Position numbers and translations under genes: made by a program. The notes under the pieces were generated by a model, which had not been told where the DNA came from, did not search any database, and worked only from the letters and a program-made list of their open reading frames with translations. Positions 1,219 to 8,781 of a DNA stretch of 11,859 nt are shown piece by piece. How positions within the stretch are numbered: position 1 is the stretch's first letter; each line of letters opens with the position of its first letter. The DNA lies in UHGV virus genome UHGV-1565572. One strand, written 5' to 3'. Source of the stretch: a virus.

Positions 1219-1842
1219 CTAACGTGTGACCGCATTCAAAATGTTGTCTGCGATTGACTCTTCTTTGTGGCATTGCACCACCAGAGCGTCATACAGAGGC
1301 TTAACAGTGCGTGACCAGGTGGGTTGAGTAAGGTTTGGGATTAGCATCGTCACAGCGCGATATGCGGCGCTTGCTGGCATTCTTGAATAGCCGACACCTT
1401 TGCATCTTCCGCACTCTTTCTCAACAACTCTCCCCCACTGCTCCGTTTTGGCAATATCAACCGCCCGACCTGTACCGTGGCAATCTCTGCATCTTGCGCC
1501 CGGCGTCGCGGCACTACGGCAATAATCCGCATAAGCGAATGTTGCGAGCACTTGCAGTACCTTTGCCTTAGTATTTCCTTCAAGCTTTGCCACACCACGG
1601 TATTTCCCCGATACCTTGTGTGCAAATTGCATCAGATAGTTGATAGCCTTTTGTTTGTCGTTCTGGCTGAGTTCATGCTTACCGCAGAATGCAGCCATAC
1701 CGAATCCGGCTTGTGATTGCGCCATCCCCATAGCAGCCATCACATCAGTACCGGAAAGAGAGTCAGAAGCCGTGGCCCGTGGTGAGTCACTCATCATCGG
1801 GCTTTTTGGCGAATGAAATTTAGCTACGCTTTCGAGTCTCAT
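1219..1842 (-). CDS. Q: Late-gene antiterminator Q
   Basis: 207 aa, [28 protein letters not shown]...; near-identical to recalled lambda Q in length and sequence. The start forms an ATGA overlap with the upstream phosphatase stop. Confidence 0.95.
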
Positions 1843-3811: not shown

Positions 3812-3984
3812 TTCCTCGCACGATGTCTTAGCCACCGGATATCCCACAGGTGAGCCGTGTAGTTGAAGGTTTTTACGTCAGATTCTTTTGGGATTGGCTT
3901 GCGTTTATTTCTGGAGCGTTTCGTTGGAAGGTATTTGCAGTTTTCGCAGATTATGTCGGTGATACTTCGTCGCTGTCGTCTCAT
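3808..3984 (-). CDS. ninE: NinE
   Basis: 58 aa from the ATG at 3982-3984 ([52 protein letters not shown]...), with an AGGAGGG RBS; matches recalled lambda NinE. The longer 88-aa track ORF is an upstream extension. Confidence 0.85.
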
Positions 3985-4506
3985 GCCGCCCTCCTGACGC
4001 CCTGCCCGATCGCCATCAATGCCGCTTTGGATACGGTAGTAAACATCCGTCGAGGACTGATGAACGGTCGCCAAATCAGCAGCATGGAGCCTTTGCTGTT
4101 TCCCTTCTTCTCCAACCCTGTCGATGGTTCGATAAAATTAATCCGTCCATCAGTGATAATGCGAACTTCGTCGACACTCTCCAGCCTTGCTGAACCATCC
4201 GACTGACATATCCTCTGGCACAAGCATAACTACCGTCTGTCGCTGTTGTATGCACTGCTCAGCGGCTTTTTCCACCCACGGCCTGATATTGCTGTACGGT
4301 GGGTTATTCCAGATTGCACCGTGGCTTATCCACTCAGAATTTAGCGCGTCGTCGGCCTCAGTTAACCAGTGAGCGCACAGAGCATTTTTGTCGCTCGCTG
4401 CCGAATCCAGCCAGAATCCAAACTCAATATCCAGTGCATCAAAAAGCCAAAGCGGCGTTTGCCAGCAGTCCTTGTCGTGTGCTGGCGTATTTGATTTGAT
4501 AGTCAT
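3981..4506 (-). pseudogene. Phage Dam-like DNA N6-adenine methyltransferase, split by a +1 frameshift near 4150-4223
   Basis: The N-terminal frame (4506 to a stop at 4150) reads MTIKSNTPAHDKDCWQTPLWLFDALD...WNNPPYS...MLVPEDMSVGWFSKAGECRRSSHYH*. The C-terminal frame (about 4223 to a stop at 3981) reads ...[44 protein letters not shown]...GQGVRRAA*. The N-terminal start is ATGA-coupled to ninB and the C-terminal stop is ATGA-coupled to ninE. The NPPY motif marks an amino-methyltransferase. Confidence 0.7.
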
Positions 4507-4943
4507 GCAGCCCGATCTCCCCATCGCGCTTTCCATTCGAGAGCCAGTCGTGCTTCGTCTGACCACTTAACGCCACGCTCTGTACCGAATGCCTGTATAA
4601 GCTCTAATAGCTCCGCAAATTCGTTTACACGCATCCTGCTGGTTGACTGGCCTATTACCACAAAGCCATTCCCGGCAAGGTTAGGAACAACATCCTGCTG
4701 CTTTAATGCTGCGGTAAACACACACTTCCAGCTTTCTGCATCCAGCCAGCGACCATGCCATTCAACCTGACGAGAGACGTCACCAAGGCAAGCCCAAAGC
4801 TTTCGATTCTGGTCTAAGCTGCGGTTGCGTTCCTGAATGGTTACTACGATTGGTTTGGTTGGGTCTGGAAGAATTTGCTGTATCGCGTGAATAGCGTTTT
4901 GCTGATGAATGGGGCTTCTTAGTTCAAACGTTAGTTTCCTCAT
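4503..4943 (-). CDS. ninB: NinB (Orf recombination mediator family)
   Basis: 146 aa, MRKLTFELRSPIHQQNAIHAIQQILPDPTKPIVVTIQERNRSLDQNRKLWA...; matches recalled lambda NinB in length and sequence. Confidence 0.9.
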   Translation of the reverse strand: MRKLTFELRSPIHQQNAIHAIQQILPDPTKPIVVTIQERNRSLDQNRKLWACLGDVSRQVEWHGRWLDAESWKCVFTAALKQQDVVPNLAGNGFVVIGQSTSRMRVNEFAELLELIQAFGTERGVKWSDEARLALEWKARWGDRAA

Positions 4944-5178
4944 GGCTCACCTTCTGCACGCATGGATTAATTAACGCCAAAATAGCTTCTGGTTTCTCAA
5001 TAACATCGAACCGCTCACCACTTGCCATTCTTACAATCGTAAATCCGGCATCAAATAGGGTTTCGATGTTGTCAGAGTTAACGTACAAGGGCTCATATGC
5101 ACTTCTGGTGCTTTCTATCGCGCTTGTGCTTGGTGGCTGATAGATGCTGCATCGCATGGTTAATTTGATAAATGACAT
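4924..5178 (-). CDS. Hypothetical protein (84 aa) immediately upstream of ninB
   Basis: ATG at 5176-5178 preceded by an AGGAG RBS; its stop overlaps the ninB start. I do not recognise the family. Confidence 0.5.
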   Translation of the reverse strand: MSFIKLTMRCSIYQPPSTSAIESTRSAYEPLYVNSDNIETLFDAGFTIVRMASGERFDVIEKPEAILALINPCVQKVSHEETNV

Positions 5179-5435
5179 ATACTCACTCCTTCACTTTGAT
5201 TCCAGCGGCGCGGATGGCGTCAGCGCAATAATCGATAGCGCAGTTGTGTCCTTTGTCGAAATCATCCTCAGCCATCACTTTGTCATCGAGTTTTATCTCG
5301 ATAGCTGCGCGAGACTTAACTCATGACTGCCAGGCAATCATCTTGATGGCCTGAACGTGAAGTTCTTCGCTGCTGTTAATAGACTCGAACTCTTCACCAA
5401 ACCACTCCAAAAACTGCTTTCTTGATTCGTCCATA

Positions 5436-5651
5436 TCAATCCCCGTTAGTCGTTTCACTCACGAATCTGACAAAACCAGCCATGTTAATTTGCATGAGTT
5501 TTTTCAACACTTTGTCTCGCCGGCTACGTTTTGGTTTTGGCCTGTGGTTGAATCTTTCACAAACTGGAAGGTTTGATGATTTCCAGTACCTATTACGCCT
5601 TGCTCCATCTTCCGCCATATCGGCATGAATAAGGTCTGCGAGTGTGCTCAT
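5436..5651 (-). CDS. Hypothetical basic protein (71 aa from the ATG)
   Basis: ATG at 5649-5651 with GGAGAGG five nt upstream; the track ORF starts two codons earlier at a GTG. It contains a basic stretch RPKPKRSRRDK. Function unknown. Confidence 0.45.
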   Translation of the reverse strand: MSTLADLIHADMAEDGARRNRYWKSSNLPVCERFNHRPKPKRSRRDKVLKKLMQINMAGFVRFVSETTNGD

Positions 5652-5665
5652 ATTCACCTCTCCAG

Positions 5666-5848
5666 TTACATTGGTTTTGTAATGTTGCTAGTCATCTTGC
5701 GAATAAAAAGATGCGTACGTAGCTTTGCTTCCCACATGTAAATCTCCTCAAGGCGAGATAAATCTACGAATACCGGACCTTTGTAATCTGGTCTTGATGC
5801 CCTTATGTATGAGCTAATAGTTTGTGCATCTTGCTCGTCAAGATTCAT
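5666..5848 (-). CDS. Hypothetical protein (60 aa) just downstream of the tR2-like terminator
   Basis: ATG at 5846-5848 preceded by GGGGGAGAGGG (MNLDEQDAQTISSYIRASRPDYKGPVFVDL...). The longer 128-aa track ORF would run through the terminator and into the helicase gene, so the short form is preferred. Confidence 0.5.
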   Translation of the reverse strand: MNLDEQDAQTISSYIRASRPDYKGPVFVDLSRLEEIYMWEAKLRTHLFIRKMTSNITKPM

Positions 5849-5864
5849 GAATTCCCTCTCCCCC

Positions 5865-5896
5865 AAATAAAAAGGCCTGCGATTACCAGCAGGCCT
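5865..5896 (-). terminator. Intrinsic terminator downstream of the helicase gene (tR2-like position)
   Basis: On the minus strand a perfect 8-bp GC-rich stem (AGGCCUGC / GCAGGCCU) with an 8-nt loop is followed by UUUUAUUU. It sits between the replication genes and the nin region, where lambda has tR2. Confidence 0.65.
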
Positions 5897-5924
5897 GTTA
5901 TTAGCTCTGTGATGTAGATGGTCA

Positions 5925-7361
5925 TCAGAATCCTCCTTTCTTCTTGGACTGCGGTTCCTCGCGTTCACGGCGGCGCATTTCAGCAGACTGTTGGTCTGTG
6001 TCATAAATAGCGCCATTTGCCTGAATGCAATACACCGTGCCGGTATTGCCATGACGATTGAGACGAAGGATTAGTTCGGTTTCACCAGGCGGAACGCTGT
6101 CATCAAAAGCACCTTCACGATGGATCCCCACCCAATAATCGCAATCCTGTTCAATCTGCCCTGTATCGCGCGAGTCACTTGGTAATGGGCGTTTATTGGT
6201 TCGGCTTTCCAGTGCGCGGTTAAGCTGCGTCAGAAGCACAACAACGCAATCAAGCTCTTTGGCAAGGTTCTTCAGTCCTTTGGTGATCATGCCGTAAGCA
6301 AGGTCGTTACGATCGGCTTTCTCAGCGGTCATTAGTGTCAGGTAATCGACCAGAATCATCCCAACACATCCTTTTTCTCGCTTGATTCGACGGCTTTCGC
6401 TGACGATTTGAGCCAGAGATAATCCCGGCGTGTCGTCGATGTAAAGCAGGTCGATTTCACTCAAGCGATTGGCTGTTTCGATCGCCCTGTTGAAGTCACC
6501 ATCGTAATCACCCTGATAGCCGTCATCAGCGTCATTTGTCGCCGGAAGGTAAAAAATATTCGGGTTAACACCAGACTTCTGCCCTACCAGTTTTTCCAGT
6601 ATCTGATCACCTGGCATTTCAAGGCTGAACATCAGAGCGGGCTTTTTCTCATGCACTGCGCAGTTGATTGCCATCTGGCTGTATAGCGTCGTTTTCCCCA
6701 TCTTAGGGCGAGCGCCAATGACAAACAGAGAGCCTTTCACCAGGCCTTTCGGTGACAGCATCCTGTCCAGCGATGGGATCCCTGTGCTCATTCCTCGTTG
6801 TTCGCCTGACGGGTCAAATCGCTTCTCAAGGTCGCTAACCCAGTCTTCCATGACCTCACCAAATGAGCGAAGGCCGCGACGCGATCCGGTTTTTGCATGG
6901 TCTGTCAGTTGCGTGAAAATCGACTGAATAGCTTCGTACTTCTGCGTTGCAGTCATTCCGTTGCGGGAATAGAGCAATTCCGTCGCTTCAGTCATGCGGT
7001 TGATGGCGTAGCGTTCCATTGCGGTTTCGCAAACCTGCATTGCATAAGCAACGATGTTTGCTGCGCTTGGCGTGTTCTTTGCGATCTCAGCGATATAAGC
7101 AAAACCGCCAACAGACACCGTTAACGATTTACGCTCCAGTTCATCGAAAAGCGTCAGGCCATCTACTGGCTTTTGCTCACGGTGCATTCTGGTTATTTCT
7201 TCGAAAATGATTTTGTGTGGTCGGCTGTAAAATGAATCAGGCTTCAGCATCGCCAGGACTTTCTGGACGCGCTCACTGCTGTCATCATCCAGAAGCAATC
7301 CACCAATCACCGCCTGCTCTGCCTCGATGCTATGGGGCGGCGCATAAAAATTATCGGTCAT
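5925..7361 (-). CDS. Replicative DNA helicase, DnaB family (phage-encoded, P22 gene 12-like)
   Basis: 478 aa from the ATG at 7359-7361. Walker A GARPKMGKTT, a DnaB-like N-terminal domain (SIEAEQAVIGGLLLD) and a RecA-like C-terminal domain. Its start overlaps the 3' end of the O-like gene. Confidence 0.9.
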   Translation of the reverse strand: MTDNFYAPPHSIEAEQAVIGGLLLDDDSSERVQKVLAMLKPDSFYSRPHKIIFEEITRMHREQKPVDGLTLFDELERKSLTVSVGGFAYIAEIAKNTPSAANIVAYAMQVCETAMERYAINRMTEATELLYSRNGMTATQKYEAIQSIFTQLTDHAKTGSRRGLRSFGEVMEDWVSDLEKRFDPSGEQRGMSTGIPSLDRMLSPKGLVKGSLFVIGARPKMGKTTLYSQMAINCAVHEKKPALMFSLEMPGDQILEKLVGQKSGVNPNIFYLPATNDADDGYQGDYDGDFNRAIETANRLSEIDLLYIDDTPGLSLAQIVSESRRIKREKGCVGMILVDYLTLMTAEKADRNDLAYGMITKGLKNLAKELDCVVVLLTQLNRALESRTNKRPLPSDSRDTGQIEQDCDYWVGIHREGAFDDSVPPGETELILRLNRHGNTGTVYCIQANGAIYDTDQQSAEMRRREREEPQSKKKGGF

Positions 7362-8241
7362 CGTGTTCACCCTCACGAACTTTCAGGTAGGTATTATCGT
7401 TAAGCAGGAAATCAAATCCCTTTTTGTGCCAGACGGTTCCGCGTTGATGGTTTGGACGCTCTTCGAACATCCATCGGCAATTTTCGCCTACGTAGCTCAA
7501 ATAATTTCTCCAGTCCTGCATCGTGAACCCATGCCCGTCAAGCTGGCGGGTTATCACTCCGGCTTTGCGCCAGAACGTTCGGATCTGGTTTTTACGCTTG
7601 TCATTCAGTGCGCGGATTTTTGGCGCTTCAGGAAGGATTTCGTGGTAAGCATCGACAACATCCTGACAGCTAACGGAAGGTTTTTTCTTGTCAGACTTTT
7701 TGTCTGCTGTGGCACTCTCTAATACGTCAGTATTAGAGATATTATTTATATTATTGTTTATGGACAACCGTTGGACAGCCGTTGGACAATCTCCGCTGAG
7801 AGCCGCGCCATTACTGGTGTTTGCGTTGGACAACCGTTGGACAACCGTTGGACAATTTTTTGCCTGAAAATCGTCATATTTAACGATTGTAAACAGGCTA
7901 AATTTCTTCCCCATCGAGCAAATATTAAGCATCCCTTTCGACTCAAAAGTCCGTAATAAGCTCCGAACTTTGTTGTCGGGGATGAATGTTTCTCTGACCA
8001 GAGACGGGCGTCCAGTTATCATCTGACCGCGATCAACAGTTATCGGACCGATATCCGTATTGACGACAGTAGATTCGTGATTAGCCTTGAGGATTAAGTG
8101 AAGCCAAAGATGTACTGCCTGAGAGTCCTTATAGAGCCTGCTGTCCATAAACTGGCGGTGTATAGAGACATACCCCATACTGGATGCCTCCTGATGTTGT
8201 ACAGGGTTATGCCTGTAATCAGCTAACTTAACGACGCCCAT
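7351..8241 (-). CDS. Replication initiator protein (lambda O / P22 gp18-like) containing the origin repeats
   Basis: 296 aa from the ATG at 8239-8241 with an AGGAG RBS; an alternative ATG at 8176-8178 also has an RBS. The ori repeats encode a repetitive linker (CPTVVQRLSN...CPTAVQRLS) followed by an Asn/Ile-rich stretch. It sits directly upstream of the helicase. Confidence 0.8.
   Translation of the reverse strand: MGVVKLADYRHNPVQHQEASSMGYVSIHRQFMDSRLYKDSQAVHLWLHLILKANHESTVVNTDIGPITVDRGQMITGRPSLVRETFIPDNKVRSLLRTFESKGMLNICSMGKKFSLFTIVKYDDFQAKNCPTVVQRLSNANTSNGAALSGDCPTAVQRLSINNNINNISNTDVLESATADKKSDKKKPSVSCQDVVDAYHEILPEAPKIRALNDKRKNQIRTFWRKAGVITRQLDGHGFTMQDWRNYLSYVGENCRWMFEERPNHQRGTVWHKKGFDFLLNDNTYLKVREGEHDDR
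7715..7860. repeat. Origin of replication: iteron clusters plus an AT-rich region inside the initiator gene
   Basis: Six copies of CGTTGGACA, as two clusters of three tandem ~11-bp units (7762-7790 and 7824-7856). An AT-rich stretch (7720-7757) lies next to them, with a 9-bp palindrome CTCTAATAC-N4-GTATTAGAG at 7717-7738. Confidence 0.75.
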
Positions 8242-8391: not shown

Positions 8392-8467
8392 TTACTCCTG
8401 TGGATTGATCCAGTCTTTCTACATCAGGCCTCGAAGAATTCGCCGTTCTTCGGGGCTTTTTCTTTTG
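8392..8467 (+). ncRNA. oop: OOP-like antisense RNA, antisense to the 3' end of cII
   Basis: A plus-strand intrinsic terminator (10-bp stem 8429-8438 / 8446-8455, then CTTTTTCTTTTG) overlaps the cII 3' end. A CATAAT -10-like hexamer at 8387-8392 lies about 70 nt upstream. Partial similarity to recalled lambda oop (GATCCAGT). The 5' end is approximate. Confidence 0.45.
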
Positions 8468-8702
8468 TCAGCATTCTGGCTACTTTCTTAGCCAGTTCCG
8501 CCAACTCCTCGTCTTCAACACCCCATTCAAGAACAGCCAGAAGCATTCCCATTTTTGGGATGAAGCTGTCTTTCCATCGCGAAATTTGCGATTCATTAAT
8601 CCCTAACGCGTCGGCAACCTTTCGCTGGCCACGTACAGCAATTCGATTCAGGATGTTGCTTGTAATTGCATTCGCTTTCTTGCGAGTACTTGTAAGTTGC
8701 AT
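8424..8702 (-). CDS. cII: cII-like transcriptional activator
   Basis: 92 aa from the ATG at 8700-8702. The core ESQISRWKDSFIPKMGMLLAVLEWGV aligns to recalled lambda cII (KSQISRWKRDWIPKFSMLLAVLEWGV); the N- and C-termini diverge. The track ORF is an upstream extension. Confidence 0.8.
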   Translation of the reverse strand: MQLTSTRKKANAITSNILNRIAVRGQRKVADALGINESQISRWKDSFIPKMGMLLAVLEWGVEDEELAELAKKVARMLTKEKAPKNGEFFEA

Positions 8703-8716
8703 ATGTAAGTATTTCC
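8680..8716 (+). promoter_or_regulatory. PRE (promoter for repressor establishment) with cII-binding repeats
   Basis: TTGC-N6-TTGT at 8680-8693, followed by ATATGTAAGTATTTCC, which matches the recalled lambda PRE -10 region. It is oriented antisense to cro and reads toward cI. Confidence 0.6.
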
Positions 8717-8719
8717 TTA

Positions 8720-8781
8720 GATAACAATTGATTGAATGTATGCAAATAAATGCATACACCATAGGTGTTGTTTAATTTGAT
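8720..8781 (-). terminator. tR1 region (Rho-dependent terminator in lambda) between nutR and cII
   Basis: Near-identical to the recalled lambda tR1 region, including the palindrome TGTATGCAAATAAATGCATACA (8738-8759). Rho dependence is inferred from lambda, not visible in the sequence. Confidence 0.5.

Follow-up and report, generated by a model that had tools for sequence, protein, structure and literature searches.

Small genes between tR2 and ninB in the lambda-like virus genome UHGV-1565572: a probable mosaic of accessory genes with a disrupted PHROG 343 member

The nin region of phage lambda, the delayed-early segment that extends from the terminator tR2 to gene Q, is non-essential and is removed by the nin5 deletion; its tR2 is followed straight by ninB, with ren located upstream. 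The pool of nin genes comprises 30-50 genes, about 10 of which are present per phage, and in phage Sf6 itself one nin gene is interrupted by a premature nonsense codon (PMC5630979). In an experimental evolution study of Sf6, 61 of 82 isolates had viable deletions that eliminated genes 46-58 partly or entirely, including gp48 and gp49 (PMC5630979). Here we describe the equivalent interval in a stretch of 11,859 nt from the virus genome UHGV-1565572 (the whole stretch is referred to as the window), in which a cluster of small minus-strand open reading frames (ORFs) lies between a tR2-like terminator and ninB. A sequence-only reading of this DNA had described the cluster as five successive genes of 60, 71, 37, 30 and 84 aa, most of them with a plausible ribosome-binding site (RBS), belonging to no recognised family and possibly encoding host-interaction or exclusion functions.

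Our analysis makes it very probable that the cluster is an unremarkable, mosaic collection of accessory genes, none of them essential, in a lambda-like Escherichia coli prophage. All five ORFs are present on the minus strand exactly where they had been placed; the terminator upstream of them has a hairpin and a T-run, in agreement with the Sf6 annotation, ninB lies downstream, and small, co-oriented and tightly packed genes do fill a variable slot between the two. The count of five genes was wrong, since the 37-aa and 30-aa ORFs share one frame, are separated by one in-frame TGA and make up one 83-codon gene, which leaves four gene cassettes. So was the absence of recognised families: the 71-aa protein is a member of Pfam DUF7301 (E 2.6e-31), the 84-aa protein is identical to Sf6 gp49, and the cluster as a whole maps to PHROGs 21123, 1785, 343 and 8458, to Sf6 gp48/gp49 and to HK022 gp59/gp60. 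In what follows the five ORFs are named B to F in the order given above, and the 26-aa ORF just upstream of the cluster, which is NinA as the sequence-only reading had implicitly assumed, is named A (Table 1).

The disrupted PHROG 343 gene

Translation of positions 5434..5183 yields an 83-codon frame whose lone internal stop is a TGA at codon 38 (5323..5321), a codon that is TGG in intact alleles. The intact allele of E. coli PEC408, annotated as 'phiTE_015 family protein' (83 aa), differs only by W38 (TGG) and by N20 in place of S20, and the exact W38/S20 protein, which differs solely at codon 38, is found on 53 public contigs. Fragments D and E match successive parts of the PHROG 343 profile (positions 36-76 and 99-125), the repaired D+E protein matches it end to end over residues 1-83 (E 1.4e-25), and the repaired protein is 98-100% identical to intact alleles. 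The gene in the window therefore has the full-length similarity expected of a PHROG 343 member, but not the uninterrupted frame. Neither Pfam nor NCBIfam gave a credible match for the repaired D+E protein, and Pfam gave none for D or E separately.

The idea that D and E are two independent small genes has in its favour that both open from an ATG, that D is preceded by a moderate Shine-Dalgarno (SD) sequence (-5.7 kcal/mol), and that a gene caller predicted the 37-aa product on two ENA contigs. We nevertheless regard it as extremely unlikely, because the two pieces share a frame with a single TGA between them, match consecutive stretches of one PHROG profile and are continuous in the intact allele; in addition, the 30-aa piece, unlike B, C, D, F and NinB, has no SD sequence before it, and its exact sequence is absent from the public protein collections searched. 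A functional 83-aa gene, in which the TGA either comes from faulty sequencing or assembly or is recoded efficiently, is very improbable too. In its favour, UGA is the leakiest stop codon in E. coli, and its misreading by tRNA-Trp would restore the original Trp; moreover, the TGA allele is just one base away from the common allele. Using an 81-nt probe, the TGA allele was not found in 5,426 complete E. coli genomes, in which the three full-length matches to the probe each have exactly one mismatch, but it is present on two ENA metagenome contigs, L169 and L170. Contig L169 (ENA ERZ28573252, BRIT16-1_SAMN02334042_METAG scaffold_2304) was dropped as independent support, because over 6,114 nt it matches the window at 100% identity, with agreeing coordinates in reverse complement; it is probably where the window came from, or another assembly of it, which points to a metagenome origin. 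Contig L170, which comes from another ENA assembly, carries the same TGA and, over 4,665 nt, has 5 other differences from the window, which argues against a one-off error. Because this non-identical contig has it too, the TGA mutation is, judged from these contigs, real and inherited in a small lineage. A stop at codon 38 occurs in no other locus examined and in no other member of the PHROG 343 family, an Rfam search gave no recoding signal, and the dam gene in the same region is also broken, which fits relaxed selection. The disrupted gene would thus give at most a 37-aa N-terminal peptide, together with traces of the full-length protein through natural UGA read-through. The 37-aa/30-aa pair is an annotation trap, in which a nonsense-disrupted gene is read as two small ORFs.

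Members of the PHROG 343 family (loci L052-L099 and others) contain three near-invariant islands, MDESRKQF, WQASRAAIEI and AIRAAGIKVKE, in N-terminal, central and C-terminal position, respectively, of which at least the C-terminal one is also near-invariant in DNA, and two hypervariable cassettes lie between these islands. We distinguished 14 N-cassette types and 9 C-cassette types, which occur in 29 combinations, with 7 N-types pairing with at least two C-types and vice versa, in a sample that is biased toward the alleles of the window because these were used as the query. Read from the sequences, this pattern is one of combinatorial cassette exchange at conserved islands, and it makes the gene both a concise illustration of lambdoid mosaicism and an arms-race candidate. 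The C-terminal end of the family also turns up in other settings: in a 120-aa protein (P0024), a domain like that of ORF F (FlbD-like) is fused to a C-terminal '...NLAIRAAGITVRGDR' tail, which is the PHROG 343 C-terminal motif, and the 30-aa fragment matches the C-termini of four PHROGs (343, 16785, 13778 and 1138). In view of this fusion and of these matches, the PHROG 343 tail of about 30 aa looks like a promiscuous module or a recombination boundary.

Mosaic structure, conserved genes and operon context

The phage and E. coli collections contain no record that spans at least 80% of positions 4900-5930. When the region was compared by blastn with 167 related loci from IMG/VR, positions 5860-5411, containing B and C, corresponded to a module of Shiga toxin (Stx)-converting phages and of many Salmonella and E. 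coli prophages, and positions 5448-4503, containing the PHROG 343 gene, F and ninB, to a module of the PEC408/Sf6 type. The two phage sets share positions 5448-5411, a conserved stretch of about 38 nt in which C ends, the RBS lies and the PHROG 343 gene begins (first codons 'MDESRKQF'); as far as sequence comparison can tell, crossover probably took place here. Segment 5925-5852, the NinA/tR2 boundary, is common to nearly all related loci. Elsewhere, the commonest gene orders are A-B-C-PHROG 343-NinB and A-x-PHROG 343-F-NinB; the order in the window, A-B-C-PHROG 343-F-NinB, was seen only in L169 and L170, and every adjacent pair in it occurs elsewhere. By these alignments, the cluster was put together by recombination from known cassettes that meet at conserved boundary sequences, a case of classic lambdoid gene-boundary mosaicism.

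From the same loci, homologous stretches were extracted and scored for intactness, and the ratio of nonsynonymous to synonymous substitution rates (dN/dS) was calculated by the Nei-Gojobori method on unique sequences. The control, NinB, was intact in 28 of 31 stretches and had a dN/dS of 0.08. Among the ORFs of the cluster, C was intact in all 97 stretches (dN/dS 0.13), F in all 27 (dN/dS 0.30) and B in 79 of 99 (dN/dS 0.28), and third codon positions hold most of the variable sites in each of them. Thus, conservation in related phages together with an excess of synonymous change, which the sequence-only reading had proposed as a check, was found for three frames, and the exact sequences of the real genes are present on 93-277 public contigs. 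Two plus-strand ORFs in the same DNA (5144..5326 and 5422..5628) had no match in a PHROG search, and the substitutions favour the minus-strand frames. B, C and F are, by these measures of conservation, genuine conserved genes, and their PHROG matches, like that of repaired D+E, go far beyond chance.

ORF B is a conserved hypothetical gene without a match in Pfam, NCBIfam, PADLOC or PDB; 277 public E. coli and Salmonella contigs carry its exact sequence. It is also lost recurrently; a stop in place of E35 was observed in one lineage, on about nine distinct IMG/VR contigs. A relationship with 122-aa NinX/DUF2591 proteins, with which it shares a 90%-identity cluster, was considered and rejected as a clustering artefact (blastp E 10). 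ORF C scores 108 bits against a Pfam cutoff of 27 and covers profile positions 1-64 of 65, which makes it a full-length, high-scoring member of DUF7301 and PHROG 1785 with no difference that we noted. The protein is basic (isoelectric point 10.4), has the conserved motif RYW-SS-LP...RRD(K/R)VL, and its invariant residues are R18, R21, Y22, S26, L28, P29, E32, R45 and D46. Since it is so basic, binding to nucleic acid or to an acidic partner is conceivable, and we put this forward tentatively. A PDB sequence search with the ORF C family profile found no relative, and a literature search for DUF7301 returned nothing. In the prophage of E. coli XYEH3934, the homologues of B and C (4876..5367) have no gene called over them by the Prokaryotic Genome Annotation Pipeline (PGAP), although the DNA is 99% identical to that of the window; small nin genes are annotated inconsistently in RefSeq.

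The window belongs to a temperate, lambda-like E. coli phage, and its nearest relative in a complete genome is this XYEH3934 prophage (79% coverage, 98.6% identity). N, a cI-like repressor, CII, the DnaB helicase, NinB, NinX, NinG and Q are all there in the lambda order; the cI-like repressor and a lambda-type N gene (PF11438, with the N36 peptide present) are on the plus strand, and Dam, NinE, NinX and NinG are encoded by minus-strand operon genes between NinB and Q. The helicase gene, tR2, ninB and Q are all on the minus strand, so that the cluster has the location of nin-region accessory genes. Downstream of ninB, a frameshift divides the dam gene (3981..4566, minus strand), which is the second disrupted gene of the nin region: 4566..4150 matches positions 1-106 of the 169 positions of Pfam Dam, and 4223..3981, in another frame, matches positions 107-167 (E 2.9e-16).

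Table 1. Positions of the features discussed, counted from the first letter of the window
Feature	Position	Strand	Evidence or remark
CII	8762..8424	minus	
Replication initiator	8241..7351	minus	
DnaB-type helicase	7376..5925	minus	upstream flank of the cluster
ORF A, 26-aa NinA-like hydrophobic mini-ORF MTIYITELITGLLVIAGLFIWGRGNS	5845..5925	minus	PHROG 5907, E 3e-19
tR2-type intrinsic terminator, stem AGGCCTGC/GCAGGCCT at 5896..5873, then TTTTTATTT	5866..5896	minus	terminator scan
ORF B, 60-aa conserved hypothetical	5666..5848	minus	PHROG 21123, E 1.4e-40
ORF C, 71-aa DUF7301 protein	5436..5651	minus	Pfam PF23975, E 2.6e-31; PHROG 1785, E 7e-35
Pseudogene D+E, 83 codons, phiTE_015/PHROG 343 family	5183..5434	minus	in-frame TGA at codon 38
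Fragment D, 37 aa	5434..5321	minus	N-terminal piece of the PHROG 343 pseudogene
Fragment E, 30 aa	5275..5183	minus	C-terminal piece of the PHROG 343 pseudogene
ORF F, 84 aa, SwrD/FlbD-type fold (predicted)	4924..5178	minus	PHROG 8458, E 6e-39; identical to Sf6 gp49
ninB, recombination mediator	4503..4943	minus	downstream anchor; Pfam NinB, E 2e-54
Mosaic junction, about 38 nt (end of C, RBS, first PHROG 343 codons)	5411..5448	minus	blastn, 167 loci
Q	1842..1219	minus	

ORF A has the features of NinA, being an ORF of about 25 aa directly after the helicase gene with tR2 inside it. The Sf6 record labels the same terminator sequence 'terminator, homology to phage lambda tR2', and the equivalent of ORF A both NinA-like and 'boundary sequence bsq6'; in the SE1 record it is labelled NinA. 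ORF A is intact in 50 of 113 homologous stretches and has a dN/dS of 0.58, and given this high ratio its conservation probably acts at the level of the DNA or the terminator. The encoded peptide is strongly hydrophobic (grand average of hydropathy 1.16), and the ORF has the best SD sequence of the region (-11.6 kcal/mol). The tR2 hairpin sits within the coding sequence of A, and the stop codon of A overlaps the start codon of B (ATGA); in principle, translation of A could affect folding of the terminator or be coupled to that of B.

Besides this overlap between A and B, the spacing is 14 nt between B and C, 1 nt between C and D and 4 nt between D/E and F, and F overlaps ninB by 20 nt. The proposal that most of the ORFs have a plausible RBS and tight spacing is correct as regards B, C, D and F (SD duplex energies of -8.4, -7.3, -5.7 and -8.3 kcal/mol, respectively) and fails for the 30-aa ORF. 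A scan for the consensus alone found no sigma-70-like promoters in positions 4400-6200, against 2.8 expected, and in the same positions Rfam gave only sub-threshold chance matches. The cluster therefore shows no promoter of its own from which it could be expressed in a repressed prophage, as a moron would. Because it lies past tR2 without such a promoter, expression by analogy with lambda should be N-dependent and delayed-early, rather than that of morons expressed in the lysogen: the genes would be transcribed only when N lets RNA polymerase read through tR2 during lytic development, and their translation would be coupled from one gene to the next. The exclusion part of the earlier functional proposal is weakened by this; exclusion exerted from a lysogen is unlikely for genes that are inside the pR operon past tR2, have no sigma-70-like promoter and no credible PADLOC match, and are coupled in translation to adjacent genes. 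Instead, they would contribute accessory, dispensable functions to lytic growth under certain conditions or in certain hosts. Both B and the PHROG 343 genes show recurrent nonsense alleles, which are, with the frameshifted dam gene, signs of relaxed constraint. The Sf6 deletions and these recurrent nonsense alleles suggest, by analogy, that the region is dispensable in the laboratory.

ORF F and the possible roles of the cluster

SwrD/FlbD (PF06289), the swarming factor of Bacillus and Borrelia, forms hexameric rings, has RemA, AgrA-LytTR and ComK as structural neighbours, and contains an Asn-xxx-Ile ring motif (PMC13232269, preprint). The ORF F protein, which is also homologous to HK022 gp60, scores 23.8 bits against Pfam FlbD when searched alone, just under the cutoff of 24.7; among the members of its subfamily of small proteins, which an exhaustive HMMER search brought up, 12 of 13 match FlbD at E<=0.01, with a best value of 1.9e-8. 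A search with the ORF F family profile yielded 133 relatives, all from Enterobacterales genomes and metagenomes, and failed to reach bona fide flagellar FlbD. By these profile matches, ORF F is a distant FlbD/SwrD relative. An AlphaFold2 model based on a 13-sequence alignment (predicted local distance difference test, pLDDT, 83) has strands at residues 3-14, 23-34, 38-43, 47-51 and 56-59, a turn at 35-37 and a helix at 63-76. In this predicted topology, beta1 and beta2 form a long hairpin and are followed by a short helical turn, by beta3-beta5 and by a C-terminal helix, which is the order described for SwrD/FlbD (beta1-beta2, short 3-10 turn, beta3-beta5, C-terminal helix; PMC13232269). The model replaced a first one, made from 4 near-identical sequences, which was unusable (pLDDT 48). 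The best structural neighbours of the model are RemA and LytTR domains, as they are for SwrD. A Foldseek search of PDB gave nothing at E<=0.001, and matches in BFVD to small proteins of very diverse phages are weak (E 0.007-0.2) and suggestive only. In sequence searches of PDB, made with B, repaired D+E and F and with the family profiles of C and F, no match fell below E 0.18.

The pore motif of SwrD, Asn15-xxx-Ile/Leu19, is present in ORF F as N34-S-D-N-I38, and I38 is invariant in the subfamily. In contrast, Glu23 and the surface motif Pro26-Asp27-Thr28 of SwrD are not kept, their equivalents being F42 and G45-F46-T47 with Thr alone retained. All these residues, the pore motif included, were placed by means of the Pfam match and its offset (residue 21 = profile position 2), not by aligning the protein directly with SwrD. 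ORF F also differs from SwrD by an insertion of about 18 residues in the beta1-beta2 hairpin. In every locus seen it is located between the PHROG 343 gene and ninB, that is, in a prophage nin operon and not in a flagellar (fla/che) operon. ORF F would most likely assemble into a SwrD/RemA-like oligomeric beta-ring that would serve as a small binding or regulatory scaffold; that it is such a scaffold acting on a host or phage partner, and not a flagellar part, has in our estimate an even chance of being right. With neither the SwrD surface motif nor the flagellar context in place, the label 'flagellar FlbD family protein' given to Sf6 gp49-like prophage proteins is probably misleading as to function. 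A literature search for FlbD and prophage returned nothing relevant.

Two more specific functions have to be weighed against the view of the cluster as ordinary accessory genes. ORF F could be a true modulator of the flagellar motor, with which the phage would influence host motility or the power of the stators, for instance so as to keep out flagellotropic phages. Its family-level homology to PF06289, its SwrD-like topology, the retained Asn-xxx-Ile ring motif and the 'flagellar' labels given by PGAP and PHROG would agree with such a role, but those labels were transferred by homology only, and the gene sits in the recombination/nin operon, overlapping ninB. The Pro-Asp-Thr of SwrD, which has been proposed to bind the partner, is G-F-T in ORF F, and Glu23 has become Phe. 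The weak same-fold matches in BFVD include proteins from phages of Mycobacterium, Gordonia and Enterococcus, which are non-flagellated hosts. Furthermore, Escherichia lacks SwrD, and the predicted SwrD-MotA contact could not be validated (PMC13232269). We therefore consider the flagellar function improbable. A role of the cluster in counter-defence, acting against restriction or abortive infection early in lytic infection with the PHROG 343 gene as an arms-race factor, deserves somewhat more attention, even though we also judge it to be rather unlikely. In its favour are the presence in other phages of Lar, a restriction alleviation protein, in the slot of F upstream of ninB, the hypervariability of the PHROG 343 family described above, a timing of expression that would suit counter-defence, and genes that are dispensable in the laboratory yet conserved. 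It should be noted, however, that this case is one of guilt by association only: none of the cluster proteins is homologous to a known anti-defence protein, the copy of the hypervariable gene in the window is dead, the cassette sampling is biased by the query, and shuffling at conserved islands is also expected from neutral 'boundary sequence' mosaicism. PADLOC found nothing for B, C and D/E, and for F a chance-level match (E 0.026) to a restriction endonuclease/methyltransferase model of 1359 positions; in NCBIfam, neither the ORFs nor the repaired gene had a credible match, the lone chance match being to BglG (E 0.063, 12.6 bits against a 322-bit cutoff). Thus, of the host-directed functions proposed in the sequence-only reading, a host-interaction or counter-defence role in lytic growth is possible, hinted at only by Lar in the same slot of other phages and by the hypervariable PHROG 343 gene.

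In other phages, for example in E. coli MB64, the slot directly upstream of ninB, which is occupied by F here, holds Lar-family, HNH or AP2-domain genes, and the Lar-type ORF ends in the same '...DEETNV' overlap into ninB (152-aa fusion ORF). A bolder reading, which we regard as doubtful, is that the genes next to ninB are a host-interface pair, consisting of the F ring protein, with DNA, recombination intermediates or a host target as its partner, and the PHROG 343 protein engaged in an arms race. If true, a ring of the SwrD/RemA fold would be widespread in Enterobacterales prophages even though Escherichia is said to lack SwrD, and its target would not be flagella; the PHROG 343 gene would evolve in an arms race, for instance as a counter-defence factor, with cassettes shuffled between three constant islands, and the window would merely carry a dead copy of one member. 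Phage homologues of ORF F also bear on the open question of what SwrD-type rings bind.

Comparison with known proteins and nin regions

RemA, the biofilm regulator of Geobacillus and Bacillus that forms an octameric, DNA-wrapping ring, and LytTR share 17% and 13% identity with F, respectively. RemA has an Arg-bearing helical insertion between beta3 and beta4 with which it contacts DNA, whereas the ORF F model has only about three residues there (44-46); with this insertion missing, DNA binding by ORF F is not implied by its similarity to RemA.

With the lambda nin region, the window shares a tR2-type terminator, N, NinB, NinG and Q, but B, C, D/E and F each have no lambda counterpart. The closest parallels are genes 45-50 of Sf6 (NinA-like/tR2, gp46-gp49 and NinB) and genes 58-61 of HK022, which have the same position and the same strand logic. 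The broken gene of the window belongs to the family of Sf6 gp48 and HK022 gp59, and the 20-nt overlap into ninB is alike. The differences are that Sf6 has gp46/gp47 where the window has B and C, the Stx-phage-type module, and that the gp48-family gene of the window has another pair of N and C cassettes than Sf6 and is truncated by a nonsense codon. All components have been catalogued before, as DUF7301, as PHROGs 5907, 21123, 1785, 343 and 8458, as Sf6 gp45, gp48 and gp49 and as HK022 gp59 and gp60, and the exact proteins are public. What the present analysis adds is the correction of two 'genes' to one pseudogene and a structural reading of the gp49-like protein. The gene order itself is a new recombinant, but one of a kind that is well known.

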